Source: Patescibacteria group bacterium
Lineage (GTDB): Bacteria; Patescibacteriota; UBA1384; XYA2-FULL-43-10; 1-14-0-10-43-13
Assembly: GCA_038078835.1 (NCBI GenBank)
Contig: JBBTQI010000003.1
Location: 2,196 to 66,195 of the forward strand
Reading direction: 5' to 3'
Length of the DNA stretch: 64,000 nt
Below the pieces are notes generated by a model that searched no databases, was not told where the DNA came from, and saw only the letters and a program-made list of their open reading frames with translations. Position 1 is the first letter of the stretch; the number at the start of each line of letters is the position of its first letter. The translations under genes and the position numbers were made by a program. Shown in pieces: positions 5,111-50,401 of this stretch.

Positions 5111-5278
5111 ATCCGATGAATTATACCGGAAAACCTGCCATGAGTCCATGTAAGAAATAAAAAGGGCTACCCGTATGGTGGCGGACAGCCCTTTTGCGCG
5201 TCGACCGCCTTGCGGCGGTGAATCCAAGGATCAAATGGCAAGGAGCCAAAAGTTCAAAGGATTCAAGAAATCGAGGCT

Positions 5279-6834: not shown

Positions 6835-8088
6835 ATGAAACACATTTATCTTGATCATTCAGCTACAACGCCGCTCGATCCGAAGGTTCTTTCGGCGATG
6901 ATGCCGTACTTCGGCGACAACTTCGGCAATCCGGGATCCTTGCACTCGTTCGGTGTTGAGACCAAGAAAGCAATCAACGACGCGCGCAAAAACATTGCCG
7001 CTTTTTTGGGCTGCGATGAATCCGAGATTATTTTCACCTCTGGTGGATCAGAATCAGACAATCTGGCCATTCGAGGACTCGTATCACGTAGCAAAGGGGA
7101 CTGTCCCCTAAAGGGGACTGTCCCCGAGAACGCCAAGAAGCCCCACATTATCACGTCGGCGTTTGAGCACAAGGCTGTTTTGGATACAGTTAAATCGCTT
7201 GAAAGGGAGGGAATAATCAAGGCTACCTATATTAAACCGGGCGCGGACGGAGTTATTAAAGTTGATGATATTAAAAATGCCATTCGCGATAACACTGTTT
7301 TAGTCTCGATTATGTACGTCAATAACGAGATCGGCACCATCCAGCCAATCCGTGAAATTGGTAAGGTCATTTCCGGGCTTAATTCTAAAATCGAAAATCG
7401 AAAATCAAAAATCTATTTCCACACCGATGCCGTTCAGGCCACGGAGTTCTGTCCGATAAATGTCCGTGATCTCGGCGTCGATCTGCTCTCCCTCTCCGCC
7501 CACAAAATCCACGGTCCCAAGGGCGTTGGCTTACTCTATGTCAAATCAGGCACACTTCTCAAGCCAGAGATTACCGGCGGCGGACAGGAGAGAGGGTTCC
7601 GCGCCGGAACGGAAAACGTTCCCGGTATTGTTGGGTTTGCTAAAGCAATATCATTAATTAGCAGCTCAAATCCCAAAGTCATACCCCCCCTTTCTAAGGG
7701 GGGGCGAAGAGAGGTTGAGAAGCTTCGCGACAGACTTATCGACGGTATCTTGGAGCGGATTCCCGGCTCGATTTTGAATGGTGATCGTGACCATCTGGCG
7801 CCGCATATTGCCAATATCAGTTTTATTAATGCCGAAGGCGAGGCTATCCTTTTAAACCTCGATTTTCTGGGTATTGCTGTTTCGACCGGTTCGGCCTGCA
7901 CTTCGCGCACGCTTGAGCCCAGCCACGTTTTAACCGCGATGGGTATCCCGCCCGAGCAAGCCCATGGTTCTATTCGGTTCTCCTTGAGCCGGAACACAAC
8001 CGAGGCAGAGATTGATCGAGTACTGGATGTCCTGCCGGGTATCATTGAAAAATTGAGGACAATGAGCCCATTTGACACAAATGGATAA
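6835..8088 (+). CDS. iscS: Cysteine desulfurase (IscS/NifS family), carrying in-frame repeat insertions
   Basis: PLP-lysine motif SLSAHKIHGPKG and a C-terminal active-site Cys region (GSACTS). In-frame insertions at 7097-7125 (GGGGACTGTCCCC pair), a microsatellite at 7383-7409 (aaaatcgaaaatcgaaaatc) and the palindrome cccccctttctaaggggggg near 7683. Confidence 0.9.
   Translation: MKHIYLDHSATTPLDPKVLSAMMPYFGDNFGNPGSLHSFGVETKKAINDARKNIAAFLGCDESEIIFTSGGSESDNLAIRGLVSRSKGDCPLKGTVPENAKKPHIITSAFEHKAVLDTVKSLEREGIIKATYIKPGADGVIKVDDIKNAIRDNTVLVSIMYVNNEIGTIQPIREIGKVISGLNSKIENRKSKIYFHTDAVQATEFCPINVRDLGVDLLSLSAHKIHGPKGVGLLYVKSGTLLKPEITGGGQERGFRAGTENVPGIVGFAKAISLISSSNPKVIPPLSKGGRREVEKLRDRLIDGILERIPGSILNGDRDHLAPHIANISFINAEGEAILLNLDFLGIAVSTGSACTSRTLEPSHVLTAMGIPPEQAHGSIRFSLSRNTTEAEIDRVLDVLPGIIEKLRTMSPFDTNG
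7097..7125. repeat. Palindromic element, family 3 (GGGGACTGTCCCC TAAA GGGGACTGTCCCC), inside iscS
   Basis: Direct and inverted pair; encodes GDCPLKGTVP in frame. Confidence 0.6.
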
Positions 8089-8257
8089 CTAATTCATCCA
8101 AATGACTAATGACGAATAATATAACCCCCTACGCCCATCCTTCTCACACCCCACCCGACCTTCCCGCAGACAGGGGAGAAAACAAAAGAAGGAGAAAATC
8201 TGAATTAGTCATTCGTCATTTAGACCAATTCGTTATCCATTTGTGGTCAGGAGTTTG

Positions 8258-8710
8258 ATGGAACAGTATTCAAAAACAGTCTTAGAGCACTTTTATAACC
8301 CGCGCAATGTCGGGGAAATTGCCGATGCCGACGGCGTTGGCGAGGTGGGCAATCTTCGCTGCGGCGATGTTATGTACGTCTATATCAAAGTAGAAAGGCG
8401 AAAGGCGAAAGGCGAAAATGGTGCAAGGGGACTGTCCCCAAAGGGGACTGTCCCTGGATTTGCCGAAGAAGAATACATTAAGGACATTAAATTTAAAACC
8501 CTGGGCTGTGCGGCGGCCATTGCTTCGACCAGCATTATGACCGAGATGGTTCGAGGTATGAGCTTAGACGAAGCAATGAGGATCACGCGCGACGACATCA
8601 ATGATGCCCTGGGAATTCTCCCCAAACAAAAATACCACTGCTCTATCCTCTCGGCCGACGGTATCCATAAGGCAATCGAAAATTACAGGGCAAAAAAGCA
8701 ATTTAGCTAG
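8258..8710 (+). CDS. nifU: Fe-S cluster assembly scaffold (IscU/NifU N-terminal domain)
   Basis: FYNPRNVGEI...GDVMYVYIKV...LGCAAAIASTSIMTEMV conserved Cys ligands. Start at the ATG at 8258 preceded by AGGAG. Carries a family-3 repeat and a (aaggcg)n microsatellite in frame. Confidence 0.85.
   Translation: MEQYSKTVLEHFYNPRNVGEIADADGVGEVGNLRCGDVMYVYIKVERRKAKGENGARGLSPKGTVPGFAEEEYIKDIKFKTLGCAAAIASTSIMTEMVRGMSLDEAMRITRDDINDALGILPKQKYHCSILSADGIHKAIENYRAKKQFS
8427..8453. repeat. Palindromic element, family 3, inside nifU
   Basis: ggggactgtccccaaaggggactgtccc; encodes RGLSPKGTVPG. Confidence 0.6.
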
Positions 8711-11549: not shown

Positions 11550-13013
11550 TTAGCCCAACTCCCAGTTGGCGTCTACTTTAATCTTGCCCCAAGAAGAAAC
11601 ATTGTTTCGCAGAACGTGATAGTAGGCCGCCAGACCAATCATCGCCGCATTATCGCCGGTTAAAGCTATTGGCGGTACCAGAAAATCTACTTTCGACTTT
11701 TCACTTTCAACTTTCAACTTGCTTCGAAGGTGTTTGTTTGCAGCAACGCCGCCGGCCAAAACAACGGTTTTGGGGGTAAATTGTTCAACCGCTCTCATTG
11801 TTTTAGTTACCAGCACATCAACAACTGCATCCTCAAAGGCAGTGGCAATCTCCGCTTTATCGATATCATCAAGACCCTCACCCCTACCCTCTCCCAAAGG
11901 GCGAGGGAGTTTTAAGGAAATCCGACGCTTAACTTCCAGAAGAACAGCTGTCTTTAAACCGGAGAAAGAAAAATTAAAAGTGCCATTGTTAATAATCGGC
12001 CGAGGAAGAACTAATTTGCTTAAGGCTGGAGGCTTAAGGCCGACCTTCGACAAACTCAGGTCGCCCTGAGTGGAAATTGAATGGGCGGAGGCCACATCCT
12101 TCCCGCCTTCAGCCTTCGGCCTTGGGCCTTGGGCTGATTCGCCTTTAGGATCATTTCTAAATTGCTCCGCCAATTTAGAAATGATCGGTCCCCCGGGATA
12201 ACCAAGACTAAGCAACTTGGCCACCTTGTCAAAAGCCTCTCCCGCCGCGTCATCCAGGGTCTGGCCGAGAGTCTCATACTGATCGTGACCCTTCATCAGA
12301 ACAAGCGAAGTATGCCCGCCAGAAACCACTAAAGCCAAAATTGGAAATTTTGGCTCGTCCAAGGCCAAAGGCCCAAGGTCTAAGGTCTTTTCGTCTCGGC
12401 CTTCGACCTTCGACCTTCGACCTTCGACATTTACTCCGCTTAAAGCGGAGTAAATATGTCCTTCGATATGGTTGACGGGAATAATCGGCTTATCCAGCAC
12501 GTAAGCGATCGATTTGGCGGCGTTAAATCCAATCAAAAGAGACCCGATCAACCCCGGTCCCGCCGTTACCGCGATGTGGGTAATCTCATTTTTTAGATAA
12601 TCCTGACTTTCCTGAAAATTACTACCCTCACCCCAACCCTCTCCCTGAAAGGGAGAGGGAGTATTAAAGGTTCCATCGCCCCGTTTCACGGGGAGAGGGT
12701 TAGGGTGAGGGGTTATAATAGATCCGTTTCCTTTATTTTGCATTTTGCATTTTGCATTTTGATTTTTAGCCTGTAAGAGTGCTTGTACGATTACAGGCGT
12801 TATCGCTTCCATATGCGCCCGGCTGGCCACCTCCGGCACTACCCCGCCCGTCTTGGCATGGAGATCGATTTGAGAGCTCACCACATTCGACAAAATGACA
12901 GGCCGAAAGCCTGTCATCCCGGACTTGATCCGGGATCCATCTTTTCCTACCCCAATAACCGCCGCAGCGGTCTCATCACAAGACGACTCGATGGCAAGAA
13001 TTAGAGGGGACAT
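11550..13013 (-). CDS. tsaD: tRNA N6-adenosine threonylcarbamoyltransferase TsaD (Kae1/YgjD), strongly expanded by in-frame repeat insertions
   Basis: LILAIESSCDETAAAVI, HIEGHIYSA, and GGVAANKHLR. Start at the internal Met MSPLILAIESS (rc ATG at 13011-13013). About 487 aa versus a typical ~340 aa. It contains family-1 repeats (11875-11910, 12625-12712), family-2 repeats (12085-12135, 12352-12430) and a (cattttg)n microsatellite at 12738-12762. Confidence 0.85.
   Translation of the reverse strand: MSPLILAIESSCDETAAAVIGVGKDGSRIKSGMTGFRPVILSNVVSSQIDLHAKTGGVVPEVASRAHMEAITPVIVQALLQAKNQNAKCKMQNKGNGSIITPHPNPLPVKRGDGTFNTPSPFQGEGWGEGSNFQESQDYLKNEITHIAVTAGPGLIGSLLIGFNAAKSIAYVLDKPIIPVNHIEGHIYSALSGVNVEGRRSKVEGRDEKTLDLGPLALDEPKFPILALVVSGGHTSLVLMKGHDQYETLGQTLDDAAGEAFDKVAKLLSLGYPGGPIISKLAEQFRNDPKGESAQGPRPKAEGGKDVASAHSISTQGDLSLSKVGLKPPALSKLVLPRPIINNGTFNFSFSGLKTAVLLEVKRRISLKLPRPLGEGRGEGLDDIDKAEIATAFEDAVVDVLVTKTMRAVEQFTPKTVVLAGGVAANKHLRSKLKVESEKSKVDFLVPPIALTGDNAAMIGLAAYYHVLRNNVSSWGKIKVDANWELG
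12625..12712. repeat. REP-like palindromic element, family 1, composite nested palindrome inside tsaD
   Basis: ccctcaccccaaccctctccc-tgaaa-gggagaggg ... ggggagagggttagggtgaggg. The outer arms at 12625-12645 and 12692-12712 are reverse complements. Confidence 0.65.
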
Positions 13014-13032
13014 TAGAGGGGACGGTTCTCTT

Positions 13033-13683
13033 TTAGGCACAGTTTTTCGCTTTCTTTGATTTTCTGGCCACCTTTTCCTGTTCTCGGTATCTTTGATAAT
13101 TACTGCCCCAGATATTTTTACCATAAGTTTGCTCAATAATTTGGTCTACCACCAGTTTTTGATAGCTAATTTGTCTATCTTGTGCATCCTGTCCGATTGC
13201 CTCATAAAGAAAATCGGGGGTGATTAATAAATCTGTTTTACCTCGAACGTAATGGAGATAGCTTGAGTATTTGTAATCTTCCGGCCTTTCTACTAATCTC
13301 GCCCTGACCGGATTAAGTTCAATATACTTTCCGCACTGGATAAAGTAGGCGTCCTTACCGACCGCCTGACTTTTATAGCGATCTTGCCAAAAGTGGCCAA
13401 TCCAATCATAGGACTGCCGATAGTGTTGGAAATAGGCCAAATTTAACTTTTTCATAAAAGTCGAAAAGTCGAGAGCTTTCTTGGTTTGAATTAAAAAGTG
13501 AGTGTGGGTAGGCATCAAGCAATAATGATAAAGGTCAAAAGGATGTTCTGATTTATACCTGCCAATAAGTTCTAAAAAATACAAATAATCATCATCTGAC
13601 CTGAAAACCTTATTCCGGTTGTTGCCCCGGGTCATTATATGATAAAAACTCTGAGATAAAAGAAATCGTCGTGTTCTTGGCAT
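13033..13683 (-). CDS. REP-associated tyrosine transposase (RAYT, IS200/IS605 TnpA-like HUH enzyme)
   Basis: HUH motif CLMPTHTHFLIQ, plus WQDRYKS and YIELNPVRARLV with the catalytic Tyr region, 216 aa. A 12-bp direct repeat (cattagagggga x2) at 13001-13024 lies just downstream. Confidence 0.7.
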   Translation of the reverse strand: MPRTRRFLLSQSFYHIMTRGNNRNKVFRSDDDYLYFLELIGRYKSEHPFDLYHYCLMPTHTHFLIQTKKALDFSTFMKKLNLAYFQHYRQSYDWIGHFWQDRYKSQAVGKDAYFIQCGKYIELNPVRARLVERPEDYKYSSYLHYVRGKTDLLITPDFLYEAIGQDAQDRQISYQKLVVDQIIEQTYGKNIWGSNYQRYREQEKVARKSKKAKNCA

Positions 13684-13789
13684 AACGTAAGTTTACTAGA
13701 ATTCAGTAAAAAGCGAAATATCGAGATAAAAAGAGAACCGTCCCCTTAAGCTCTTAAGCTTATTAACAAAAATCCCTATAAAAATCAAA

Positions 13790-13820
13790 TGGAGCGGCCG
13801 ATCTTCGATCGGCCGCTCCA
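13790..13820 (-). terminator. Perfect GC-rich hairpin downstream of the GC-rich gene at 13857-14639
   Basis: ggagcggccgatc-ttc-gatcggccgctcc, a 13-bp stem, followed on the minus strand by an A/T-rich tract. Confidence 0.4.
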
Positions 13821-13856
13821 AGGGTCCAAGAGGGGGAACCCCAAGCACACAGCGCC

Positions 13857-14639
13857 CTAGGAAGCAAGGACTCCCAGAGGGCGAACCGCCGCGCGGCGCC
13901 AGCGGCCGTCGGCAAAGTTGTAGCTGACGCGCACGAGGCCGCCGTAGTTCGAATCGCCACCGACGAGGCGGTTCGACGCGTCCCCGAAGAACTCCTCGTA
14001 CCAGACCCACGTATCGGTCTGGCCGTCGTTCGCACGGGGGCACATGGCGGGGTATGCCTGCGGGACGATGTTCGCCTCGATAATGGTCTCGAGGCGCATC
14101 CGCTGAGCCGGGAGGCCGAGCAGCTCGGCGACCACCGAACGGAGGTGGTTGTCCCACTCCACGGGCGAGACACCGAAGCGGCTCTCCTGAGGGCCGTACT
14201 CGTACTTGACGAGCTTGCCATCTGCCCGAAGGCGGGCGATCAGCTTGCCCAGGAAGTTGGCGTCGTTTGCGAACATCTGCCGCCCGCCGTCGTACGACGG
14301 CTTGCAACGCGTGTCCACCAGGGCAACGATGCCCTCGAGGCCAACTTCGGTCATCGAAGCCAGCTCGCCGCTGGCGTTGCGCCGCTTGATGTTGCCGGCG
14401 CCGATCTGTTCCCAGAACCAGAACTCCGGCTTCTTCTTCCAGCCCTTGAGGCTGGTCTTAGCGGTAAGCACGAGCTTGGGCAGGAAGTGCACCTCGAGAC
14501 CGAGGGCATTCCAGGCCTTCACGCGCTCTTGGCCTGTGGCCTCGAGCACCTGGCGCATCAGCGCCAGGTTTTGTGTCTGGCCGAAGAATGCCTGGTGGCA
14601 TTTCTCTTCGGCGGCAATGATCTTGCCAATCCAATCCAT
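13857..14639 (-). CDS. Hypothetical protein on a second ~65% GC island (probable horizontal acquisition)
   Basis: Start at the internal Met MDWIGK (rc ATG at 14637-14639). GC-rich versus its flanks and free of repeats. Its C-terminal half shows faint similarity to the 5279-6208 protein (TFVVNEYG versus TWVWYEEFFG; ERIIEV versus ETIIEA). Confidence 0.5.
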   Translation of the reverse strand: MDWIGKIIAAEEKCHQAFFGQTQNLALMRQVLEATGQERVKAWNALGLEVHFLPKLVLTAKTSLKGWKKKPEFWFWEQIGAGNIKRRNASGELASMTEVGLEGIVALVDTRCKPSYDGGRQMFANDANFLGKLIARLRADGKLVKYEYGPQESRFGVSPVEWDNHLRSVVAELLGLPAQRMRLETIIEANIVPQAYPAMCPRANDGQTDTWVWYEEFFGDASNRLVGGDSNYGGLVRVSYNFADGRWRRAAVRPLGVLAS

Positions 14640-14774
14640 GGTCGTTCTCCTCTCTGAAACGTTGCGTTTATGATAGCGCGAACGCTTGCAGCGTACCACG
14701 AGTTGATAGTCTAAGACTATACACTATTTTCCTGTCACTGTCAATGTTTCTGGACTTGATATTTTCTGCTATCC

Positions 14775-15719
14775 TTGAAGTTAATGTCCACCTCTCTTTT
14801 CCAAACCCCCGAGTGGGGGGATTTTAAGTGCCAAACCGGCTGGAGCAAGCAGCATCGCCTTGACGGTATTTTGGTGCTGGAGAAAAAATTACCCCTTGGA
14901 CGGACGATGCTATATTCACCGATGATCAATGAGGCTCAAGGCCGGAGGCTCAAGGCCGGAGGCTTTTTGGAACAGATCAAAAACATCGCTCAAAAGCGCA
15001 ATGCCATATTTTACCGGGTGGAATTCGACACCCCGCTCCCAACCTTCGACCTTAAGCCTTCGACCTTCGGCGCCCGTCGGGCTTTCGAGGAGATGCAGCC
15101 GGAGCATACGCTGATTCTCGATATCACCCAGAGCGAGGAAGAGATTCTGGCTCAGATGAAACCAAAGGGGCGGTATAACATTAAAGTGGCCGAACGAAGC
15201 GGAATCGAGATAACGGAGTCAACTGATCCCAAGGGGCCGGAACTCGACAGCTTTTACACACTCTACGAGTCTATGGCCAAGCGGCAAAGAATTTCCTATC
15301 GAGATAAAAAATACTTCGAGGCTCTACTTGAAATCCTGGGCAAAAAGGATTATGCTCGACTGTACGATGCCTCTGTTAATATTGATGGCAAAACTACTAC
15401 CCTGGCATCAGCCATTGTCGGGAACTTTGATCGGCGGGTGACCTATCTCTTCGGCGGCTCAAGCAATGAACACCGTAATTTGATGGCGCCCTATCTCCTG
15501 CATTGGCAGATAATCAAAGATGCTAGAGCGCAGGGCTGCACTGAATACGACTTGTTCGGTATTGCCCCCAATGATGACCCCAAACATCCCTGGGCCGGCG
15601 TAACGCGGTTCAAAAAACAGTTCGGCGGCCGCGAGGTCCACCTGGCCGGAAACTGGGATCTGGTCTTTAGACCGGTTGAATATCAATCATTCAAGATAGT
15701 CGAGAAAATCCGAAGATAG
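14775..15719 (+). CDS. FemAB-family peptidoglycan interpeptide-bridge aminoacyltransferase
   Basis: FemAB-like architecture: LILDITQSEEEILAQMKPKGRYNIKVAER, then ...YLFGGSSNEHRNLMAPYLLHWQIIKDARAQGCTEYDLFGI. Carries two family-2 repeat insertions (14936-14966, 15041-15072). Confidence 0.8.
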   Translation: MKLMSTSLFQTPEWGDFKCQTGWSKQHRLDGILVLEKKLPLGRTMLYSPMINEAQGRRLKAGGFLEQIKNIAQKRNAIFYRVEFDTPLPTFDLKPSTFGARRAFEEMQPEHTLILDITQSEEEILAQMKPKGRYNIKVAERSGIEITESTDPKGPELDSFYTLYESMAKRQRISYRDKKYFEALLEILGKKDYARLYDASVNIDGKTTTLASAIVGNFDRRVTYLFGGSSNEHRNLMAPYLLHWQIIKDARAQGCTEYDLFGIAPNDDPKHPWAGVTRFKKQFGGREVHLAGNWDLVFRPVEYQSFKIVEKIRR

Positions 15720-17350: not shown

Positions 17351-17363
17351 CAACGAACATCCC

Positions 17364-18491
17364 TCACTTTAATCCTCTCCCTTTGAAGGGGAGAGGGGAG
17401 GGGGAGGGTTTGGCTTGTGAGCGTTTGCCGTGAAAAGCTTGGTGAACTTCGCGCAGATGCTGATCGGTAACATGGGTATAGACTTGAGTGGTGGTGATGG
17501 AAGAGTGGCCCAAAAGCGACTGGACGCTCCGAACATCGGCGCCGTTAATTAAGAGATCGGTGGCAAAGGAGTGGCGCAAGGTGTGCGGCGATACCTTTTT
17601 AGTGAGACCGGCTTTCCTGGCCGCTTTCTCGACAATACGCTGGACACTTCGAACCGCGAGACGCCCGCCCCGGGGGGAAGAGAAAAGGGGCTCATTATCA
17701 CTTAAGGCCGGAGACCTAAGGCCGGAGACCAAATTGCTATTACCTTCAGCCTTCAGCCTTAGACCTTGGGCTGATTTGCCTTCAGCCTTAGACCTTCGGC
17801 CTTGAGCTGATTCGCCTTGGGCCTTGGGCATGGGGCCTTCGGCATAATTCTTCAACCAATATTTTGCGCTCTCTGAAAGAAAAACGACCCGAAGCTTCTT
17901 GCCCTTACCCAACACGGCAATCTCACCTCGTTCGAGATTTATCTGGTCCCGGTCAAGGGCGACCAACTCCGAGACTCGCACCCCCGTTGAAAAAAGAACC
18001 TCCAGAATCGTCCGATCGCGCAAACCGGAAGTTTTAGCAACATCGACAGACTCTAAAACGCTTCTAAGCTCCTCCGTTTCCAGAAAACTGATCTCGCGAT
18101 CCCCCGTTTTAGCGATAACAACCTTCTCCGGCGGTAAAGTCATAATCCCCCGCCAAGAGAGATAGCGCAAAAAAGCCCTAAGGGCTAGGGCATGATAATT
18201 TTGTGTCGTCTTCTTAAGCTCTTGCCCCTTCTTGTCGCCCAATCGATTGATGTAAAGCCGGTAGTGCCGCACCGTCTCTTGGGTAATCATTTCTGGCATA
18301 AGGCCGGAGGCCACATCCTTTTCGCCTTCGACCTTAGGCCTTTGGCCTTCGGCAACATAATCCTTCAGCCACGTTAAAAAACGATTAAGGTAGCGGTCAT
18401 ATCCGGCAATCGTTAAAGTTGACTGGCCCTTGTCCAGCTCGCAATACTCCAAAAACTCGCGTTTTAATTGAAATAAATCATTCATTATCAT
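17364..18491 (-). CDS. xerD: Tyrosine recombinase XerC/XerD family, carrying in-frame repeat insertions
   Basis: HTLRHSFATDLLINGADVRSVQSLLGHSSITTTQVYTHV (R..HxxR..Y catalytic box). Two family-2 repeat insertions (17697-17835, 18298-18360). The C-terminal tail and stop codon lie inside a family-1 palindrome (17361-17410). Confidence 0.85.
   Translation of the reverse strand: MIMNDLFQLKREFLEYCELDKGQSTLTIAGYDRYLNRFLTWLKDYVAEGQRPKVEGEKDVASGLMPEMITQETVRHYRLYINRLGDKKGQELKKTTQNYHALALRAFLRYLSWRGIMTLPPEKVVIAKTGDREISFLETEELRSVLESVDVAKTSGLRDRTILEVLFSTGVRVSELVALDRDQINLERGEIAVLGKGKKLRVVFLSESAKYWLKNYAEGPMPKAQGESAQGRRSKAEGKSAQGLRLKAEGNSNLVSGLRSPALSDNEPLFSSPRGGRLAVRSVQRIVEKAARKAGLTKKVSPHTLRHSFATDLLINGADVRSVQSLLGHSSITTTQVYTHVTDQHLREVHQAFHGKRSQAKPSPSPLPFKGRGLK
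17697..17835. repeat. GC-rich palindromic element, family 2 (AGGCCGAAGGC / GCCTTCGGCCT theme), inside xerD
   Basis: aaggccggagacctaaggccggagacc...ccttcagccttcagccttagaccttgg...ccttcggccttgagctgattcgccttgggccttgggc. The translated segment KAQGESAQGRRSKAEGKSAQGLRLKAEGNSNLVSGLRSPALSDN recurs in uppP and tsaD. Confidence 0.6.
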
Positions 18492-18608
18492 AAATGGATG
18501 ACTAATTGGTCTAAATAACAAATGACGAATATTCATATCCCCTCTATCTCCCTCCCGCATCGAGTACGGGACAGGCTCTACCTTAGGGGGAGAACCATTG
18601 GTTGTTCG

Positions 18609-19241
18609 TTATTTGGAAAATTCGTTATCCATTTCTGGTTGTGCTGTGGCATACTCCCAATGCCTCTCATATTTATGAACAAAGCGATAGGCCAGAACAC
18701 CGGACAAAACTCCCAGGATGGCGCCGGCGGCAGTATCAGAGGGGTAGTGCAGGCCCGTTCCAATCCGACCCAGCGCCACGCCGAAAGCAAGGATAAGCAA
18801 AGCTATGCCCAAACGACGGTGGCCATAGAGATAAACACTGATAGCAATGGCAAAAACAATATAGGTGTGACTGGAGGGAAATGAGCTCATCCTCTCGACC
18901 GAGAAGAGACTAAGAGAGGGATTAACGATGTCTTCGTGGGTAACAAAGGGGCGGGGGCGGCGCCAAAAAACGAAAATGATCAGGTCGGTCATTGCACCAA
19001 GGCCCATCGCGATGAAGGAGCAGATAAAAGCATTGATTCTTTTGCGCCAGATCAGATAGGTGAAGGAAAGCAGAAAAATCGCCATACCGAACTTGGCAAA
19101 GAAAAAAAAGAGTCGGTAAAACCAGGGATTGCCCTCGCCTAAATTATAGAAGAAATAATAAATCGTAAAATCATAACTACGCAAAGAATCAAAAAAGCTT
19201 TCCATAACCCTATGATAACACTCAGAGAAACCGGTTAGCAA
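18609..19241 (-). CDS. PAP2-family phosphatase (acid phosphatase / undecaprenyl-PP phosphatase-like membrane protein)
   Basis: PAP2 motifs ...RRPRP, SFPSSHT, RIGTGLHYPSDTAAG. The true start may be the internal Met MESFFDSL (~19205). Confidence 0.7.
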   Translation of the reverse strand: MLTGFSECYHRVMESFFDSLRSYDFTIYYFFYNLGEGNPWFYRLFFFFAKFGMAIFLLSFTYLIWRKRINAFICSFIAMGLGAMTDLIIFVFWRRPRPFVTHEDIVNPSLSLFSVERMSSFPSSHTYIVFAIAISVYLYGHRRLGIALLILAFGVALGRIGTGLHYPSDTAAGAILGVLSGVLAYRFVHKYERHWEYATAQPEMDNEFSK

Positions 19242-19261
19242 ATCAGTGTTTCTTTGATAAA

Positions 19262-20170
19262 ATGATAACTATGCAAGAATTCTTTCAGTCTCTGGTAATC
19301 GGCGCCATCCAGGGCATCACCGAATTTCTGCCGATCTCCTCGTCGGGGCACCTGGTCTTGGTCCCTTATCTTTTTGGTTGGGACTATCAGGGTCTCTCAT
19401 TTGATGTCGCCCTTCATTTTGGCACCGCCCTTGCTGTTATTGCCTACTTCCGGCGGGACTGGATAAAGATCATCGCTAAAGGCCTAAGGCTGAAGGCTGA
19501 AGGCAATAGCAATTTGGCCTCCGGCCTTAGGCCTCCGGCCTTAGGCTTTTCCGCTTCCAGCCCTAGGCCTCCGGCCTTAGGCAAAAATTTGCTGTGGCAA
19601 ATTTTAATCGCTTCCATTCCGGCGGCGATTGCCGGCATCTTGATCAACGACTATGTTGAATCAACTCTCCACTCTCCTCTCTTGCTCGCCGCTAACCTGA
19701 TTATCTTTGGCTGGCTTCTCTGGTATGCCGACAAACGAGCTGCCTTCGGCCTTTGGCCTTCGGCCTTCGCCCATTCGATTTCCACTCAGGGCGATCTGAG
19801 TCTATCGAAGATCGGCCTTCGGCACGCCTTGTTTATTGGTCTGGCTCAATCTCTTGCCCTGGTCCCCGGCGTCTCCCGCTCCGGCATCACCATCACCGCC
19901 GCTCGCAGCCTCGGCCTGAATCGGGAAGCGGCAACCCGCTTCTCCTTTCTCCTCGGTACTCCGGCGATTGTCGGCGCCTTTCTCTATAAATTCAAGGATA
20001 TCGATATTGCCCTAATTAACCTTCCCTTTATTGTTGCCACACTGGCGGCAATGGTCTTTGGTTTTCTTGCGATCAAGTATTTGCTACAATATTTAAGAAA
20101 GAGCGATTTCTCCGTTTTTTTGTGGTATCGAGTCGCACTAGCCATAATCGTGCTCTTCGGAGGGAAATGA
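19262..20170 (+). CDS. uppP: Undecaprenyl-diphosphatase UppP/BacA, carrying in-frame repeat insertions
   Basis: N-terminus LVIGAIQGITEFLPISSSGHL, and a C-terminal GVSRSGITITAA motif. Family-2 repeat insertions at 19478-19582 and 19742-19772 encode LRLKAEGNSNLASGLRPPALG and FAHSISTQGDLSLSKIGL. Both peptides also occur in xerD and tsaD. Confidence 0.85.
   Translation: MITMQEFFQSLVIGAIQGITEFLPISSSGHLVLVPYLFGWDYQGLSFDVALHFGTALAVIAYFRRDWIKIIAKGLRLKAEGNSNLASGLRPPALGFSASSPRPPALGKNLLWQILIASIPAAIAGILINDYVESTLHSPLLLAANLIIFGWLLWYADKRAAFGLWPSAFAHSISTQGDLSLSKIGLRHALFIGLAQSLALVPGVSRSGITITAARSLGLNREAATRFSFLLGTPAIVGAFLYKFKDIDIALINLPFIVATLAAMVFGFLAIKYLLQYLRKSDFSVFLWYRVALAIIVLFGGK
19478..19582. repeat. GC-rich palindromic element, family 2, inside uppP
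   Basis: aggcctaaggctgaaggctgaaggc...ggcctccggccttaggcctccggccttaggc. Confidence 0.6.
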
Positions 20171-27986: not shown

Positions 27987-28036
27987 CCCTCACCCTAAAC
28001 CCTCTCCCTTTCGGGGAGAGGGAATAAGAGGGAGTG
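27987..28036. repeat. REP-like palindromic element, family 1, intergenic copy
   Basis: ccctcaccctaaaccctctccctttcggggagagggaataagagggagtg. Confidence 0.6.
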
Positions 28037-29976: not shown

Positions 29977-30130
29977 CCAAAGTCAAAATTCAAATGTCAA
30001 ATGTCAAAATGATAAAGGATAAACACAGGGCAATAAGGCTGTAGTGCTAGTAAGGCAGTAGAGTATTTATGGCAGCCCTATTGCTTTACAGGCTTTACTT
30101 GCTTATTATTCGATATTCGGATTTTACAAA

Positions 30131-31189
30131 ATGTCCCAATTTTCAACTCAACAATCAATCGACATTGCCGGGATTAAGGAGGGTGTCGTCATCCTCAAGA
30201 ATGGCGGCTACCGCCTGATCTTTTCGGTGGCGGCAATTAACTTTGCCCTAAAGAGCGAGCAGGAACAGAACTCGATTATTTTCCAGTACCAAAGCTTTTT
30301 AAACTCCCTTCACTTCCCCATTCAGATCGTGATGAGATCCAAGCGTTTAGACCTCGACCCGTATTTGCAAAAAGTCTCCAAGCTGGCCGGAGATCAGCAA
30401 AACGAGTTATTGCGAATTCAAACTGAGGATTACGTCGACTTTGTCGGCAAACTCATCAATATCGCCAACATTATGAAAAAGACCTTCTACGCCGTCATCC
30501 CCTACCAGCCCCTCTCTCTCCAAAACACGGGCGCTCTGGGCAAACTGTTCCGGCGAGAAAAAACGGTGACAGAGCTTAAGATCTCTGAAACGGAGTTCAA
30601 TCATAATATCCAGGAGCTTAAACAGCGCGCCGGCGTTGTCGCCAGCGGCCTGGGCTCGATGGGCCTGCGCTGTGTTCAGCTCTCAACCGAGGAGGTCATT
30701 GAGCTCTTTTATCAAGTCTACAACCCCGAAGAAGCCGGAACGGAGAGAGTCAGCGATGCCGAGAGCCTGACCTCGCCCGTTGTCATTCACAAAAGCGAAG
30801 CGCCCGAAGAAGCCGGAGGTCAAAGGCCGGAAGGTGAAGGCGATAATACGGCCGAGAGCCTAAGGCCGAAGGCCGAAGGGGGTCAAGCTGAAGGCGAAAG
30901 GCCGGAGGCTGAAAGCCAAAGAGAAGAGGTAATTGACAATTCGGCCTCGGTACTGGCGCAACAAAAAGAACAAGCTATGCTCCACCGCCAGGAGATGATG
31001 AAGGAGGGAGAGCGCAATATAGCCCAAGGCCAAAGGCCGGAGGCTGAAGACGACAACACCCCCAATCCGCCACCGGCAACGCCCGAACCAATAACTCAAA
31101 CGCCGAATCAAACCACTACTCAAACAAATCAGCCCGACAACTCGAACCCCGAGGAACAGGATGAAACCCAACAGCACAAGCCCCAATAA
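30131..31189 (+). CDS. VirB4/TraC-family ATPase, N-terminal fragment (split gene) with a low-complexity repeat-derived tail
   Basis: DIAGIKEGVVILKNGGYRLIFSVAAINFALKSEQEQNSIIFQYQSFLNSLHFPIQIVMRS matches the VirB4 N-terminus of Gram-positive conjugation systems. The C-terminal ~130 aa (EAPEEAGGQRPEGEGDNTAESLRPKAEGGQAEGERPEAE...) are encoded by family-2 repeats at 30812-30918 and 31021-31048. Confidence 0.55.
   Translation: MSQFSTQQSIDIAGIKEGVVILKNGGYRLIFSVAAINFALKSEQEQNSIIFQYQSFLNSLHFPIQIVMRSKRLDLDPYLQKVSKLAGDQQNELLRIQTEDYVDFVGKLINIANIMKKTFYAVIPYQPLSLQNTGALGKLFRREKTVTELKISETEFNHNIQELKQRAGVVASGLGSMGLRCVQLSTEEVIELFYQVYNPEEAGTERVSDAESLTSPVVIHKSEAPEEAGGQRPEGEGDNTAESLRPKAEGGQAEGERPEAESQREEVIDNSASVLAQQKEQAMLHRQEMMKEGERNIAQGQRPEAEDDNTPNPPPATPEPITQTPNQTTTQTNQPDNSNPEEQDETQQHKPQ
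30812..30918. repeat. GC-rich palindromic element, family 2, inside the virB4 N-terminal fragment
   Basis: ggaggtcaaaggccggaaggtgaaggc...gcctaaggccgaaggccgaaggg...gaaaggccggaggctgaaagcc. Confidence 0.55.
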
Positions 31190-31592
31190 AGGCTCCCTCC
31201 AATCCCCTCTCCTCCGAGAGGAGAGGGTGAGGGTGAGGAGAAAATTAAGAGTTAACTCAACTCCAGCTGAACAGATAATCTGGCACAAAATAAGATCAAG
31301 ACAATTAAACAACCTGAAGTTTCGGCGGCAACATCACTTTGGAAAATATATCGCCGATTTCTATTGCCCAGAGAAGAAATTGGTAATCGAGATCGATGGT
31401 GATGTTCATGATTTAGAATGTCAGAGAGAGCACGATAAAAAAAGAGGCCATTATTTAACGAGCTTAGGTTTGCGTGTCTTACACATTACCAATGATGAAG
31501 TGAGAAATAATCTTACAGGAGTACTAGAAAGCATCTTGCTGCAACCCCATCCCTCACCCCAACCCTCTCCCTTAAAAAGGGGGAGGGAGTAA
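31161..31592 (+). CDS. DUF559-family endonuclease-domain protein (Vsr/restriction-endonuclease-like fold) inserted between the two virB4 halves
   Basis: RKLRVNSTPAEQIIWHKIRSRQLNNLKFRRQHHFGKYIADFYCPEKKLVIEIDGDVHD...LGLRVLHITNDEV matches the DUF559 consensus. It is flanked by family-1 palindromes at 31194-31228 and 31551-31592. A likely alternative GTG start lies near 31231. Confidence 0.65.
   Translation: MKPNSTSPNKGSLQSPLLREERVRVRRKLRVNSTPAEQIIWHKIRSRQLNNLKFRRQHHFGKYIADFYCPEKKLVIEIDGDVHDLECQREHDKKRGHYLTSLGLRVLHITNDEVRNNLTGVLESILLQPHPSPQPSPLKRGRE
31194..31228. repeat. REP-like palindromic element, family 1, left flank of the DUF559 cassette
   Basis: tcccctctcctccgagaggagagggtgagggtgagg. Confidence 0.6.
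31551..31592. repeat. REP-like palindromic element, family 1, right flank of the DUF559 cassette
   Basis: tccctcaccccaaccctctcccttaaaaagggggagggag; encodes the DUF559 C-terminal tail HPSPQPSPLKRGRE. Confidence 0.6.
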
Positions 31593-31602: not shown

Positions 31603-33441
31603 ATGGCAAATCCAGCTGATCAAAATATGACCGCCTCTCCGGATGCGCGAACGATTGCCCAAAGCAATGTCGAGGCGAGAGAAAAAGCATCCAAACTCGC
31701 CTTTTGGAAACAGAACGGCGAGGATTTCTCGCGGGGCGCAACCTCCGTCCGCGATATCATCGCGCCGGCCGCCTTTGTTGTGAACTCAAACTACCTTCAG
31801 ATCGGTCCGCACTATGCCCGCACCCTCTTTGTCTTTACCTATCCCCGCTACCTCGAAACCAACTGGCTCTCGCCCATTATTAATTACGATATTACCGTCG
31901 ATATGGGAATGTACATCCATCCGCTCGAGTCCAAGGATGTAATGCACCAGTTAAAGACCCAGGTCGGCAAACTTGAGTCGACGATGATGATCGAACAGGA
32001 GAAGGGCCAGCCGCGCGACCCGGAGATCGAAACGGCTCTCGGCGACGTTGAGGCCCTACGCGACGTCCTCCAGCGCGGCGAGGTCCGCCTCTTTCAGTTC
32101 GGGCTCTATTTTACACTCTACGCCAAGTCGCTCGAGGAGCTAAAAACCATGACTGAGCAGCTTGAATCTACCCTCGGCGGTCTCCTTATCTACACCAAAG
32201 AGTCGCTCTTTCAGATGGAGCAGGGTTTTACCGCCACCCTGCCCTTAATGCACGACAAACTGGAGATCCTGCGCAACCTTGACACCAGCTCTCTCTCCTC
32301 CACCTTCCCCTTCACCTCCTCTGAGCTGACCCAGGACGACGGCATCCTCTACGGCATCAACCGCCACAACAATTCGCTGATAATATTCGACCGGTTTCAT
32401 CTTGAGAATGCCAACAGCGTCGTCTTTGCCAAATCCGGTTCGGGTAAATCTTACTTTGTCAAGCTTGAAGCCCTGCGTTACCTGATGCTTGGCACCGATA
32501 TCATCATCGTCGACCCGGAGAAGGAGTACAAAACGCTCTGCGATGCCATCGGCGGCAGTTACCTTGACATCTCTCTTAACTCTGATAAACGGATAAACCC
32601 CTTTGATCTGCCCCTGAATCCCAAAGCGGAGGCCAATGAGACGGGCGAGGATGTCCTCCGCTCCAACATCGCCTCCCTTCACGGCCTGATTAATCTGATG
32701 GGCGGCGGCCTCTCGCCGGAGGAAGACGCGATCGTCGACAAGGCGCTCTACGAAACCTATGCCCTAAAGGATATTACCGCCGACCCGGAGAGCCAGAAGA
32801 ACGAACCGCCTCTGCTTCAGGATTTCTACAACGTTCTGGGCAATATGCAGGGCACCGACTCTCTCCGCGCCAAGCTCTCCAAATACACCGAGGGCTCCTT
32901 TGCCTCCCTCTACAACCAGCCGACCAACTTTGAATTGAAGCCCGGTATGGTCGTCTTCTCTGTGCGCGATCTGGAGGAACAGCTCCGTCCCCTGGCGATG
33001 TATATGATCTTAAACTATATCTGGACCAAGATCCGCCAAAATATGCGGCGGCGGATTATGATTATCGATGAAGCCTGGTGGATGATGCAGTTTGAAGATT
33101 CGGCCAAATTCCTTCACGGCCTGGCTAAGCGGGGCCGGAAGTATTACCTGGGCCTGACGATTATCAGCCAGGATGTCGAGGACTTTCTGGGTTCGCGCTA
33201 CGGCAAGGCGGTGGTGGCCAACTCCTCGATGCAGATCCTGATGAAACAGTCCACGGCGTCGATTGACGTTGTCGCCGATGTCTTTAACCTGACCGAGGGG
33301 GAAAAGTACCTCCTGCTCGAATCTGACGTCGGCGAGGGGCTCTTCTTTGCCGGCCTGAATCACGTCGCCGTCAAAGTCGTCGCCTCTTACGCCGAGGATC
33401 AGATCATCACCACCGATCCGAAGCAATTACTCGGAGAGTAA
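31603..33441 (+). CDS. virB4: VirB4/TraC/CagE-family T4SS ATPase, C-terminal (ATPase) portion
   Basis: Walker A VVFAKSGSGKSYF, Walker B-like RIMIIDEAWWMM, and a mid-region DIIAPAAFVVNSNYLQIGPHYARTLFVFTYPRYLETNWLSP typical of VirB4. Confidence 0.8.
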   Translation: MANPADQNMTASPDARTIAQSNVEAREKASKLAFWKQNGEDFSRGATSVRDIIAPAAFVVNSNYLQIGPHYARTLFVFTYPRYLETNWLSPIINYDITVDMGMYIHPLESKDVMHQLKTQVGKLESTMMIEQEKGQPRDPEIETALGDVEALRDVLQRGEVRLFQFGLYFTLYAKSLEELKTMTEQLESTLGGLLIYTKESLFQMEQGFTATLPLMHDKLEILRNLDTSSLSSTFPFTSSELTQDDGILYGINRHNNSLIIFDRFHLENANSVVFAKSGSGKSYFVKLEALRYLMLGTDIIIVDPEKEYKTLCDAIGGSYLDISLNSDKRINPFDLPLNPKAEANETGEDVLRSNIASLHGLINLMGGGLSPEEDAIVDKALYETYALKDITADPESQKNEPPLLQDFYNVLGNMQGTDSLRAKLSKYTEGSFASLYNQPTNFELKPGMVVFSVRDLEEQLRPLAMYMILNYIWTKIRQNMRRRIMIIDEAWWMMQFEDSAKFLHGLAKRGRKYYLGLTIISQDVEDFLGSRYGKAVVANSSMQILMKQSTASIDVVADVFNLTEGEKYLLLESDVGEGLFFAGLNHVAVKVVASYAEDQIITTDPKQLLGE

Positions 33442-33497
33442 CATTGCCGAAGGCTGAAGGCCTAAAATAGTCGCCTTCGGCCTCAAGCAAATTATTA

Positions 33498-36018: not shown

Positions 36019-36245
36019 ATCTCAAACAACAAGCACCAAATATCAAATAATTTCCAAATCACAAACCTCAAATAACAAATAAATTCCAGATTGCAATTAC
36101 CAGCTACAAAAGCGTTTGAAAATTAGAGATTGGGACTTGGAACTTATCTAAGATTTGTTATTTGGGATTTAAATTTTACTTGTGGTTTGGTGCTTGGTAT
36201 TTGAGGTTTCTCCGCTTTGGCGGAGAGGAGGGGTTTTGGCAACCG
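36019..36245. repeat. ~220 bp AT-rich MITE-like inverted-repeat element, copy 1
   Basis: ...caagcaccaaatatcaaataatttccaaatcacaaacctcaa...ttacttgtggtttggtgcttggtatttgaggtttctccgctttggcggagaggagg. The arms are imperfect reverse complements. It ends in a small hairpin plus GGAGAGGAGG. Confidence 0.5.
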
Positions 36246-47347: not shown

Positions 47348-47386
47348 AAGTCTTATATGACCTATAAGACATATGGGTCTTATGGA

Positions 47387-48493: not shown

Positions 48494-48793
48494 CACAATA
48501 CCTTTCGCTAATATTTTCCTGTGGATAACTCCCTGATTTATCCGCAACCCTGTGGATAACTTATGAAAAACTCGTCGCCTGTAAGGGCGCCGGTTTAAGC
48601 CGGTATATTCTTATCCCCGACACCGGGTATTAATCCACATCTTTTCCCCCACCTTTGTCCAGAACTTATCCCCAACCTCCTCCTTTGTTTTTGATATTTG
48701 ATATCTGATATTTGATATTTATCCACTTATCCACAAGCCTTACTATTACTACTATTAAGTATTTATTATCTTTTCAATAAAACAGGGGATAAG
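48494..48793. other. Chromosomal replication origin (oriC) between dnaA and dnaN, with DnaA boxes and an AT-rich unwinding element
   Basis: TGTGGATAA at 48520-48528 and 48551-48559, TTATCCGCA near 48538, TTATCCAC/TTATCCACA at 48719-48735, plus AT-rich (tgatattt)n repeats at ~48690-48725. A further TTATCCACA lies upstream of dnaA at 50228-50236. Confidence 0.7.
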
Positions 48794-50182: not shown

Positions 50183-50401
50183 AGCTGGAAAATCCCTTAA
50201 AAAAATAGACAACTCAAATATAGCAAGTTATCCACAGGGTACGTCAATAGAGCGTTGGGCAAGGCATCCATCGTCGCTAAAGTGACTTCTCCTACAAAAT
50301 TACAAATTTTACAAATACTATGGTGAACAGGTTCGAATCAATTTGTAATATTTGTAGTTTCGAAAGATTTGTAATTTTGTAGGATATTTAGGTGTATTGT
50401 G

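Follow-up and report, generated by a model that had tools for sequence, protein, structure and literature searches.

The window and its genes

We analyzed a window of 64 kb (contig JBBTQI010000003.1, positions 2,196 to 66,195; G+C content ~50%) from the metagenome-assembled genome (MAG) of a bacterium of the Patescibacteria, or Candidate Phyla Radiation (CPR). The window, by which we mean this entire stretch of DNA, carries a family of GC-rich palindromic repeats that are built from 7-nt units and that lie in frame within five genes. Its proteins match only MAGs of Patescibacteria, and its UppP (MEK9155815), FemAB (MEK9155811) and TraC-like (MEK9155825) proteins have identical counterparts in the NCBI MAG named 'Patescibacteria group bacterium'. 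Four of the host genes were assigned using Pfam, namely tsaD (11550-13136, minus strand, with the true start probably at 13013), femAB (14775-15719, plus strand), the gene of a XerD-like tyrosine recombinase (Phage_integrase; 17364-18560, minus strand), which we call xerD, and uppP/bacA (19262-20170, plus strand). The fifth is a gene for a TraC-like protein of a type IV secretion system (T4SS; 30131-31189, plus strand).

For comparison, we used five syntenic loci from other metagenomes (L007, L009, L011, L012 and L013), which were found by protein look-up. In all of them the genes are arranged as ValRS-TsaD-FemAB-MurE-XerD-PAP2-UppP, and T4SS genes come next if the contig is long enough; the contigs of L007 and L009 end soon past UppP, and ValRS is not adjacent in L013. 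Orthologous proteins of the window and these relatives are 53-64% identical.

A first-pass annotation, made from the sequence alone, had called 30131-31189 an N-terminal fragment of virB4. In fact, this is an intact, stand-alone TraC-like gene, and the three relatives that cover the region all keep it apart from the gene of the VirB4 ATPase. In the window, L011, L012 and L013, separate, adjacent genes encode a TraC-like N-terminal protein of 318-352 aa and a VirB4-type ATPase (31603-33441 in the window; about 605-617 aa across four genomes). We therefore rejected the idea that the repeats have broken virB4, and a split VirB4 appears to be the normal state for the T4SS cluster of this clade (TrbL, PrgI, TraC-like protein, ATPase).

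The genes dnaA, dnaN and recF lie on the minus strand at 46.3-50.2 kb (46304-50212), and the cumulative GC skew is lowest near 48-52 kb. We therefore place the probable origin of replication at about 50-51 kb, and the position of these three genes places all repeat copies on one replichore.

A repeat family built from heptamers

Eleven loci in the window carry arrays of the 7-nt unit GGYYNRA or of its complement. The unit occurs as GGCCGAA, GGCTGAA, GGTCGAA, GGCCTAA, GGCCCAA, GGCCGGA and similar variants. At most loci, direct units are followed by inverted ones and so form hairpins; the usual build is a direct array, a loop of 11-12 nt and an inverted array (GGCCTCC, GGCCTTA and similar units). 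The copies are 28-143 nt long and GC-rich, and are mosaics of 7-nt units and short loops. The heptamer is the unit of the family, a fact that the first-pass annotation overlooked. All of the coordinates reported there do hold repeat copies, and it was only the extents that were too narrow in places: the large tsaD copy spans 12016-12150, the copy in the C-terminal part of XerD reaches 17845, and the second uppP copy reaches 19822.

The unit is far more abundant than in shuffled sequences. Pairs of cores of the form GGYY-N3-GGYY (or the complement) number 94, compared with 30 ± 6 in shuffles, and they cluster at 12.0-12.4, 14.9-15.1, 17.7-18.35, 19.5-19.8, 30.8-31.05 and 33.45 kb. The pattern AAGGYYGAAGGN{8,16}TGGYCTCCGSCC, which describes a hairpin module, is found four times where none is expected. 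Among the 74 rows given by Tandem Repeats Finder, 32 have a period of 7 or 14, while the mean in 20 dinucleotide shuffles is 1.65.

Many copies are predicted to fold stably as RNA. The z-score is -6.6 for the hairpin that we call TsaD-b (-43.5 kcal/mol), -5.0 for the single intergenic copy, -3.9 for the first copy in uppP (UppP-1), and between -2.2 and -3.2 for the others. Fold energies of the sense and antisense strands are about equal and show no consistent asymmetry, and the palindromy therefore belongs to the DNA rather than to a structure specific to mRNA. We had considered selection at the mRNA level, preserving G-U pairs, as the reason for four C/T differences between modules in xerD and uppP; this idea was dropped because of the same lack of asymmetry between sense and antisense folds. 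An Rfam scan at gathering thresholds returned only a tRNA-Ser and no match for the repeats.

Copies within genes

Ten of the 11 copies are inside intact genes, a fraction that equals the coding density of the window (~91%). As proposed in the first-pass annotation, these insertions are in frame: every genic copy keeps the open reading frame (ORF), the conserved blocks that precede and follow the copy share one frame, and no genic copy disrupts the ORF. In the long composite copies, only one or two of the six frames are open, and the frame in use is among them. Each of the module lengths (45, 66 and 36 nt) is divisible by three.

Two copies lie in tsaD. The larger, TsaD-c (12016-12150, minus strand), consists of a GGCGAATCAGCCCAAGG module, three GGYYNRA units, the loop GGGAAGGATGT and a right arm, GCCTCCG...GCCTTAAGCCTCCAGCCTTAAGC, that is split by a discrete 45-nt hairpin. 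This hairpin, HSIS (12041-12085, minus strand), has the sequence CCCATTCAATTTCCACTCAGGGCGACCTGAGTTTGTCGAAGGTCG and is nested at the unit boundary GCCTCCG^GCCTT. The predicted translation of TsaD-c is PKGESAQGPRPKAEGGKDVASAHSISTQGDLSLSKVGLKPPALSK, one of the six frames is open and is the frame in use, and the insert falls between residues 189 and 193 of Escherichia coli TsaD, with predicted local distance difference test (pLDDT) scores of 39-53. The second copy, TsaD-b (12356-12428, minus strand), is the hairpin (GGTCGAA)x4 GGCCGAG, loop, TTAGACC TTGGGCC TTTGGCC TTGGAC. It encodes VEGRRSKVEGRDEKTLDLGPLALD and is located between E. coli TsaD residues 119 and 118-127, with pLDDT of 47-55.

In femAB, site 1 (14931-14964, plus strand) is a direct array, (GGCTCAA GGCCGGA)x2.4, with period 14 and 100% matches, encoding AQGRRLKAGG. 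Site 2 (15041-15071, plus strand) is an inverted array, ACCTTCG ACCTTAA GCCTTCG ACCTTCG GC, encoding TFDLKPSTFG. The two sites pair with each other (z = -3.1), although 76 nt of native coding sequence separate them.

The xerD gene also has two copies. XerD-C (17703-17845, minus strand) is a composite of two 36-nt tandem blocks, each GGCRAATCAGCYCAAGG plus units, followed by a 65-nt hairpin module with the loop AATAGCAATTT; its peptide is KAQGESAQGRRSKAEGKSAQGLRLKAEGNSNLVSGLRSPAL, one of six frames is open, and its position is between residues 196 and 206 of E. coli XerD. XerD-N (18302-18353, minus strand) reads GCCGAA GGCCAAA GGCCTAA GGTCGAA GGC, the loop GAAAAGGATGT and then GGCCTCCGGCC, and encodes AEGQRPKVEGEKDVASGL. 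In uppP, UppP-1 (19478-19582, plus strand) combines a 66-nt hairpin module (GGCCTAAGGCTGAAGGCTGAAGGC, AATAGCAATTT, GGCCTCCGGCCTTAGGCCTCCGGCCTTAGGC) with a 36-nt repeat of the right arm, and is predicted to be coil with pLDDT of 49-65. UppP-2 (19742-19822, plus strand; pLDDT 56-76) is an array (GCCTTCG GCCTTTG GCCTTCG GCCTTCG) followed by HSIS at 19770-19814 and then GCCTTCGG.

Of the two copies in the TraC-like gene, the first (30811-30921, plus strand) has direct arrays only (GGTCAAA GGCCGGA ... GGCCGAA GGCCGAA ...) and encodes GGQRPEGEGDNTAESLRPKAEGGQAEGERPEAE; the second is short (31021-31048, plus strand) and reads GCCCAA GGCCAAA GGCCGGA GGCTGAA. The remaining copy is an intergenic hairpin (33445-33487) composed of GCCGAAGGCTGAAGGCC, TAAAATAGTC and GCCTTCGGCCTCAAG. 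It begins 3 nt past the stop codon of the VirB4-like ATPase and has stop codons in all three frames of the plus strand. We rejected a role as transcription terminator, as there is no T-tract.

When mapped onto structures, the inserts in TsaD, XerD and UppP fall in gaps of the alignments to Protein Data Bank entries, between conserved blocks. Compared with E. coli TsaD there are five such gaps; the heptamer family or the 45-nt element fills three, and different repeats fill the rest. The UppP inserts occupy two loops. AlphaFold models made with homologue alignments have a mean pLDDT of 87 for UppP and 79 for TsaD, with most core blocks at 90 or above. Residues 81-104 and 162-180 of UppP (pLDDT 49-65) and residues 95-130, 195-222 and 291-333 of TsaD (pLDDT 39-58) are modeled as low-confidence coil, and the inserts are accordingly predicted to be disordered. 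TsaD is 487 aa long here, the E. coli protein has about 340 aa and the shortest TsaD of the clade has 348 aa, and the Pfam match to it is broken into four stretches. About 30% of this essential enzyme is repeat-derived loop sequence.

Modules shared between genes and a nested element

The first-pass annotation had pointed to near-identical peptides in unrelated proteins and had attributed them to a mobile DNA repeat. The peptides are present, and the DNA beneath them is shared. The peptides LRLKAEGNSNLVSGLRSPAL in XerD and LRLKAEGNSNLASGLRPPAL in UppP correspond to the 65-nt hairpin with loop AATAGCAATTT, in which XerD-C and UppP-1 are identical at 61 of 65 positions (94%). The peptides SAHSISTQGDLSLSKVGLKP in TsaD and FAHSISTQGDLSLSKIGLRH in UppP correspond to the 45-nt hairpin CCCATTCRATTTCCACTCAGGGCGAYCTGAGTYTRTCGAAGRTCG, for which TsaD-c and UppP-2 agree at 52 of 58 positions when flanks are included (90%). 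A hairpin with loop GRRAAGGATGT is common to XerD-N and TsaD-c (44 of 52 positions, 85%), and the motif GGCRAATCAGCYCAAGG occurs once in TsaD-c and twice in XerD-C. Within copies, both XerD-C and UppP-1 contain 36-nt tandem duplications. A further example of a peptide predicted to be encoded by an insert is LKAEGNSNLASGLRPPALGF.

Spread at the level of DNA explains the shared peptides well, given that the copies occur in both orientations, that one of them is intergenic, and that modules of 52-65 nt are 85-94% identical between genes. Depending on the orientation, the same units give different peptides, of the KAEGRRP type or of the FGLRPSA type. We conclude that sequence has been exchanged between loci.

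In both tsaD and uppP, the 45-nt element HSIS breaks the heptamer array at the identical unit boundary, GCCTYCG^GCCTT. If it is removed from uppP, what remains is the unbroken array GCCTTCG GCCTTTG GCCTTCG GCCTTCG GCCTTCG; if it is removed from tsaD, the result is GTGGCCTCCG-GCCTTAAG, for which the xerD paralogue is unbroken as GTGGCCTCCGGCCTTATG. The xerD copy at 18302-18353 reads GTGGCCTCCG^GCCTTATG straight through without HSIS, and can thus be regarded as a paralogous empty site. HSIS therefore offers the window's best evidence for what would be a discrete insertion with a target preference, and its nesting at the same array junction in two genes is, as far as sequence comparison goes, the strongest sign of mobility. 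The element is bounded by YCG...TCG, such that 2-3 nt, (Y)CG, could be a target-site duplication, with two copies on which to judge it.

Syntenic relatives

The first-pass annotation had suggested a comparison with insertion-free orthologues. In six-way alignments with the five relatives, most of the window's inserts are missing from most relatives. UppP-1 is absent in L011, L012 and L013 (three of five), and the site of UppP-2 is empty in four of five (L007, L009, L012 and L013). XerD-C is absent in L009, L011 and L013 (three of five) and XerD-N in L011 and L013; only a minimal loop is found in place of TsaD-c in L007, L011 and L012 (three of five). A 27-aa insert in the TraC-like protein is absent in all three comparable relatives (L011, L012 and L013). 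UppP-1, UppP-2, XerD-C, TsaD-c and the TraC-like insert are lineage-specific gains.

In the relatives, the same loops carry other repeats that are unrelated to those of the window. L007 has a palindrome family of the form CHPEFISGSH...MLKQVQHD in TsaD, XerD and UppP, and its ValRS gene (1757-1828) has an in-frame hairpin of (AAGAATC)n and (ATGATTC AAGATTC)n that the ValRS of the window lacks. The L007 ValRS also has an insert of the VIPAKAGIQ type. In L009, FemAB and XerD contain (AATCAAG)n arrays, and two TsaD sites (3766-3811 and 4066-4095) hold an array of the 8-mer ATTGTTGA that gives NNSTIQQFNN. All six genomes are enriched in arrays of period 7, which are mostly genic (6-32 arrays, compared with 0.3-1.7 in shuffles). 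In a wider comparison of 120 homologues of the clade, the length of TsaD lies between 348 and 546 aa, with five hypervariable regions that coincide with the insert sites of the window, and the UppP loops are hypervariable among 24 homologues. Since these loops are hypervariable throughout the clade and each relative has its own repeats in them, the pattern owes as much to selection for permissive sites as to insertion.

FemAB has a different history. At its site 1, a segment of ~10 codons is present with the same length and in the same register in all six genomes, while the sequence of the unit differs by genome. The array is perfect in L009, (AATCAAG)x4.7, in L013, (AGTCAAG)x4.3, and in the window, (GCTCAAG GCCGGAG)x2.4; it is degenerate in L007, which has the AATCAAG unit as well, and decayed in L011. 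Because site 1 is orthologous across six genomes, the array must be old and must have been re-homogenized separately in several lineages. The interpretation given in the first-pass annotation is thus essentially right, but its claim of recent spread fails for the femAB copies, given the orthology of site 1. FemAB site 2 has (ACTTTCC)x4.4 at the same site in L007 and L012.

There are hints in the sequences that XerD-N and TsaD site c may share the history of FemAB site 1. XerD-N reads KNQESRIKN in L009 and AEGQRPKVEG in the window, and TsaD site c has GTAGAAA/GGTAGAG units in L007 and L009, compared with GGCCGAA/GGCTGAA in the window. It may be that the GC-rich family of the window derives locally from an AT-rich family that the clade has in common.

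We also considered whether the repeats could be an error of assembly or binning, in the form of collapsed or chimeric repeats. The source is a short-read metagenome assembly, in which repeats are a known cause of errors. However, Logan assemblies of two separate sequencing runs match the window with 100% identity, over 14.3 kb for ERR3858135 and over 5.0 kb for ERR3858133, including the xerD and uppP inserts, and the NCBI/ENA MAG is likewise identical. Moreover, every genic insert keeps the frame of a conserved gene, and the phenomenon recurs, with different repeats, in relatives that were sampled elsewhere. Two identical assemblies of independent read sets exclude an assembly artefact, and we consider the chance of any artefact of this kind to be negligible.

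These data also bear on phase variation. A unit of 7 nt is not a multiple of three, so the gain or loss of one unit would switch a gene off, as in a contingency tract, and perfect tracts of 4-5 heptamers do occur within ORFs (TsaD-b in the window, and FemAB in L009, L012 and L013). The host genes tsaD, uppP and xerD are, however, single-copy essential genes, the two assemblies are identical and have no length variants, and no variant alleles were seen in the protein clusters of the three window proteins that were looked up. We regard this explanation as highly improbable.

Searches beyond the syntenic loci gave little. The hairpin pattern had four matches, a chance level, in 596 Gb of species-representative genomes (unrelated high-GC genomes and a bin from Lake Erken) and none in IMG/VR, and a pattern for HSIS had no match in JGI metagenomes. 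A phmmer search with the TsaD-c peptide against 1.84 billion representative proteins returned TsaD itself and one spurious repeat protein. With a 91-aa concatenation of insert peptides, a database of 5.8 billion clusters (90% clusters) yielded 17 candidates, none of which scored; matches that are this short and biased cannot reach significance. The family is thus lineage-specific, as far as public data show. The Lake Erken match (L006:2210-2290, CAITQQ010000272.1) is a hairpin that lies between genes and has tandem GGGGTTGAA/TTCAACCCC units as its arms; it may be a comparable structure, likewise built from units, in a different uncultured bacterium.

Origin of the repeats

We think it probable that the family consists of non-adaptive, lineage-specific, GC-rich hairpin repeats that are copied between loci as DNA and then filtered by selection, in a manner that resembles the Rickettsia palindromic elements (RPEs) discussed below. 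In the first step, hairpins (or HSIS) would be copied as DNA from locus to locus, most likely via a single-stranded hairpin intermediate; the agent could be a transposase or a replication-associated copy-and-paste process that recognizes the array junction. Arrays would then grow, shrink and become homogenized by slippage, of which only changes by a multiple of three would survive, in addition to the 36-nt tandem duplications that are seen directly. Since ~91% of this small genome is coding, most insertions hit genes. The copies that we see have a net length of 3n, a stop-free frame and a position in tolerant surface loops, a pattern that would result if selection retained only such insertions. 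Translation would finally turn the inserts into disordered loop peptides that have no function in themselves, and TsaD, XerD, UppP and a T4SS protein would in this way come to share peptide modules.

Several observations weigh against this explanation. No clear terminal inverted repeats (TIRs) or target-site duplications are found at the copies, beyond the 2-3 nt of (Y)CG around HSIS. The relatives are only 53-64% identical, and thus do not provide a true pair of filled and empty alleles. FemAB site 1 is an ancient orthologous array, so some copies may arise or persist without transposition. The presence of unrelated repeats in the same loops of relatives fits selection for permissive sites, and fits recombination hot spots equally well. 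The insert peptides are predicted translations, and the evidence comes from 64 kb of the genome. Finally, no mobilizing enzyme can be tied to the family, as the sole transposase in the window has a different association.

This transposase is a REP-associated tyrosine transposase (RAYT, where REP stands for repetitive extragenic palindrome), encoded beside tsaD at 13033-13683 on the minus strand (NCBIfam NF047646, 81.1 bits with a cutoff of 80; Pfam Y1_Tnp, 6e-19). A perfect 17-nt inverted repeat, GGGGACGGTTCTCTTTT (13019-13035 and 13733-13749), of the GGGGACNGTCCCC palindrome family borders it on both sides; the relatives of this sequence in the rest of the window are GGGGACTGTCCCC palindromes rather than heptamer repeats. 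We rejected the RAYT as mobilizer of the heptamer repeats, since there is no sequence link and its flanks are a different palindrome. No RAYT is present between tsaD and femAB in any of the five syntenic relatives, and it looks like a recent arrival.

It is important to consider that the family might have spread without any transposition. Heptamer arrays could arise in place in DNA that codes for loops, through a bias of this clade toward slippage or duplication, and modules could then be distributed and homogenized among existing arrays by ectopic gene conversion, for which the arrays would supply the homology. The lack of TIRs, target-site duplications and a cognate transposase in the window agrees with this possibility, as does the finding that all six genomes are enriched in period-7 arrays of many different units, mostly in genes. 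The arrays at FemAB site 1, which share a register but are genome-specific and perfect in L009, L013 and the window, are suggestive of concerted evolution; the C-terminus and site c of tsaD similarly bear arrays of differing units in the window and its relatives, and the copies are mosaics of modules. On the other hand, UppP-1, UppP-2 and the TraC-like insert lie where most relatives have no array that could have served as a target of conversion, and the edges of HSIS are sharp and identical at a unit junction in two genes, which looks more like a discrete insertion than a conversion tract. In-place growth with conversion thus accounts well for FemAB site 1 and for the mosaicism, and less well for gains at array-free sites and for HSIS. 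It may act together with insertion, but we find it rather unlikely as the explanation of the family.

A second alternative is that the repeats are kept because they are useful, either as flexible, charged loops that diversify the proteins of an episymbiont, or as DNA or RNA hairpins that tune transcription, translational pausing or mRNA stability. In thermodynamic terms the hairpins are strong, expansion affects the same loops throughout the clade (as with the five variable regions of TsaD), and the peptide of FemAB site 1 persists in L011 although the periodicity of its DNA has decayed. Nonetheless, the content of the inserts at one and the same loop is unrelated between relatives, and the same DNA gives different peptides depending on orientation. 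The inserts are predicted to be disordered, there is no bias toward folding of the sense strand and no Rfam match, and the hosts are cytoplasmic or membrane housekeeping enzymes rather than surface antigens. For these reasons we judge a useful role to be very unlikely.

A more far-reaching proposal is that heptamer arrays and junction-targeting hairpins form an active, clade-wide system that continually rewrites the same surface loops of essential proteins. We put this forward as a speculation that is probably incorrect. If it were true, the arrays at FemAB site 1, which are perfect but specific to each genome (AATCAAG, AGTCAAG, GCTCAAG/GCCGGAG), would imply a dedicated mechanism of homogenization or templating, for example an HUH/RAYT-type enzyme that acts on array hairpins, rather than the passive decay of old insertions. 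The GC-rich family of the window would then descend from the AT-rich family of its relatives.

Comparison with known repeat systems

In its behavior, the family is closest to the RPEs. RPEs are described as palindromic repeats of about 150 bp in ten families, of which nearly half are in frame in unrelated genes (PMC10969869, for Ogata et al. 2000). The likeness extends to dispersed palindromes that lie in frame in unrelated housekeeping genes and add a conserved peptide (here ten copies in five genes), to insertion sites that are compatible with the protein fold (here loops of low pLDDT, with cores of at least 90), and to a bearer with a small genome and a host-dependent life, with no known cognate transposase. 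RPEs are elements of about 100-150 bp in an AT-rich alphaproteobacterium, whereas the modules found here are GC-rich, 45-66 nt long, made of 7-nt units and located in Patescibacteria. The window's family is also set apart by its nested element, its 36-nt tandem duplications and the orthology of some arrays across deeply diverged relatives. It is not a member of the RPEs, from which it differs in organism, size, composition and build.

REPs and the REPINs formed from them are short (20-40 bp) imperfect palindromes with an unpaired GTAG/CGTC head, which are mostly extragenic and are mobilized by RAYTs (PMC3733652). The present repeats are likewise short, GC-rich, imperfect palindromes in multiple copies, often in inverted pairs; intragenic REPs have been reported, and a RAYT lies beside tsaD (PMC3733652 for the former). 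However, no copy has GTAG at its end, and CGTC/GACG occurs within 10 nt at 3 of 11 copies and at inconsistent positions. In addition, all copies but one of the 11 lie inside genes, their arms consist of heptamer arrays, and the RAYT in the 64-kb window is flanked by its own, distinct 17-nt inverted repeat rather than by heptamer repeats.

Bacterial transposable elements of the miniature inverted-repeat type (MITEs) can create in-frame fusions, as shown by QMITE of Coxiella (PMC5896051); related examples are the ERIC, BOX and Correia elements. MITEs resemble our repeats in being small, non-autonomous and translatable within host ORFs, but the window's family is much shorter, modular and array-based, and has no TIRs that match an insertion sequence (IS). 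The hairpin arms could serve as TIRs, and HSIS has its possible duplication of 2-3 nt in two copies only. No parent IS with matching ends was found in the 64-kb window.

Cyanobacteria have short tandemly repeated repetitive (STRR) sequences, which are dispersed, intergenic, direct repeats of heptanucleotides. In Beggiatoaceae, TAACTGA heptamers are similarly dispersed, intergenic and direct, and their origin is unknown (PMC4679880). An excess of dispersed tandem 7-nt units of several types is a feature that the window shares with both, its units including the GGCCGAA type, GCAAAAT, TGAAAGT, GAAAGGC and CAAATAA. In contrast, the arrays of the window and its relatives are mostly in ORFs, and those of the window are constrained by frame and paired with inverted arrays into hairpins. 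Another system with palindromes in coding sequence is found in the mitochondrial genes of Nematomorpha, which have perfect inverted repeats of up to 284 bp (PMC6649704). There too, inverted repeats are inside protein-coding genes and both arms are translated, but these repeats are organellar, long and perfect, are not built from short units, and are not modules common to several genes.

The phenomenon is thus known in principle, and what is new is that it involves heptamer-built, nested repeats in loops that are hot spots throughout a clade, in a CPR bacterium. Our search of the literature, whose coverage is incomplete, found no report of in-frame palindromic repeats, RAYT/REPIN elements or heptamer repeats in CPR/Patescibacteria. 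Specialists would be surprised by the density of the repeats in a streamlined genome, by the nested 45-nt element, and by arrays that are orthologous yet specific to each genome.

CPR genomes are regarded as highly streamlined, which contrasts with the share of TsaD that is derived from repeats. Throughout the clade, unrelated repeats have expanded one and the same set of loops. Colonization of coding DNA in the manner of the RPEs is therefore not an oddity confined to Rickettsia, and it may be common where intergenic space is scarce. There are consequences for the annotation of CPR proteins, for models of their families and for the prediction of their structures. The inserts also constitute a natural experiment as to which protein sites tolerate insertions, and HSIS and the genome-specific orthologous arrays provide handles on how short hairpin and heptamer repeats arise and move.

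Other repeats in the window

Several further repeats were observed. The GGGGACTGTCCCC palindromes, to which the flanks of the RAYT gene are related, have 12 copies where 1.2 are expected, including those at 4916-4944, 7096-7125, 8427-8451 and 13000-13026. Copies lie within the ORFs of MnmA (3764-5227), NifS (6835-8088) and NifU (8243-8710); in nifU, the copy is preceded by a heptamer array, (GAAAGGC)x3.6, and Pfam splits NifU in two at this place. These palindromes are probably the REPs of the neighboring RAYT, here in an intragenic setting. Beside the RAYT gene, the region 13696-14699 has locally high G+C content, a 280-aa ORF that matches nothing in Pfam or NCBIfam, and several overlapping ORFs in alternative frames. 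The relatives have no counterpart of this size between tsaD and femAB, and the region may be cargo or foreign DNA that came with the transposase.

The tsaD gene contains additional repeats. Palindromes of the form CCCTCACCCCAACCCTCTCCC...GGGAGAGGG, located at 12625-12663, 11875-11900, 17361-17399, 27998-28026, 31551-31589 and 4530-4555, encode peptides of the PLPxxGEGxGEG type twice in TsaD and at the C-terminus of XerD, and have intergenic copies as well; they are presumably the 'first family' of the first-pass annotation. At 12900-12945 (minus strand), tsaD has two adjacent, perfect small hairpins, ATCCCGGA-TCAAG-TCCGGGAT and ATGACAGGC-TTTCG-GCCTGTCAT. Together these encode GSRIKSGMTGF (residues about 22-36, counted from the M at 13013), and they are absent in L007, L011, L012 and L013.

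Other heptamer arrays are found at 12735-12766 and 11689-11720 (both in tsaD), 7387-7413, 29978-30008, 48690-48720 and 63826-63928; other units, in genic and intergenic positions, are GCAAAAT, TGAAAGT, AAAATCG, CAAATGT, TTTGATA and CAAATAA. Repeats of period 7 are in excess throughout the genome, as they are in the five relatives. Three AT-rich blocks of about 100-200 nt (36016-36215, 54570-54773 and 63819-63874) are mutually 86-91% identical, contain CAAATAA-like units and lie upstream of genes, and may be shared promoter or leader regions. Finally, a near-perfect palindrome of 40 nt, CCACCTGGAAGGTG...CACCTTCCAGGTGG, occurs three times (55632-55671, 56542-56581 and 60521-60560) and represents a separate hairpin family.

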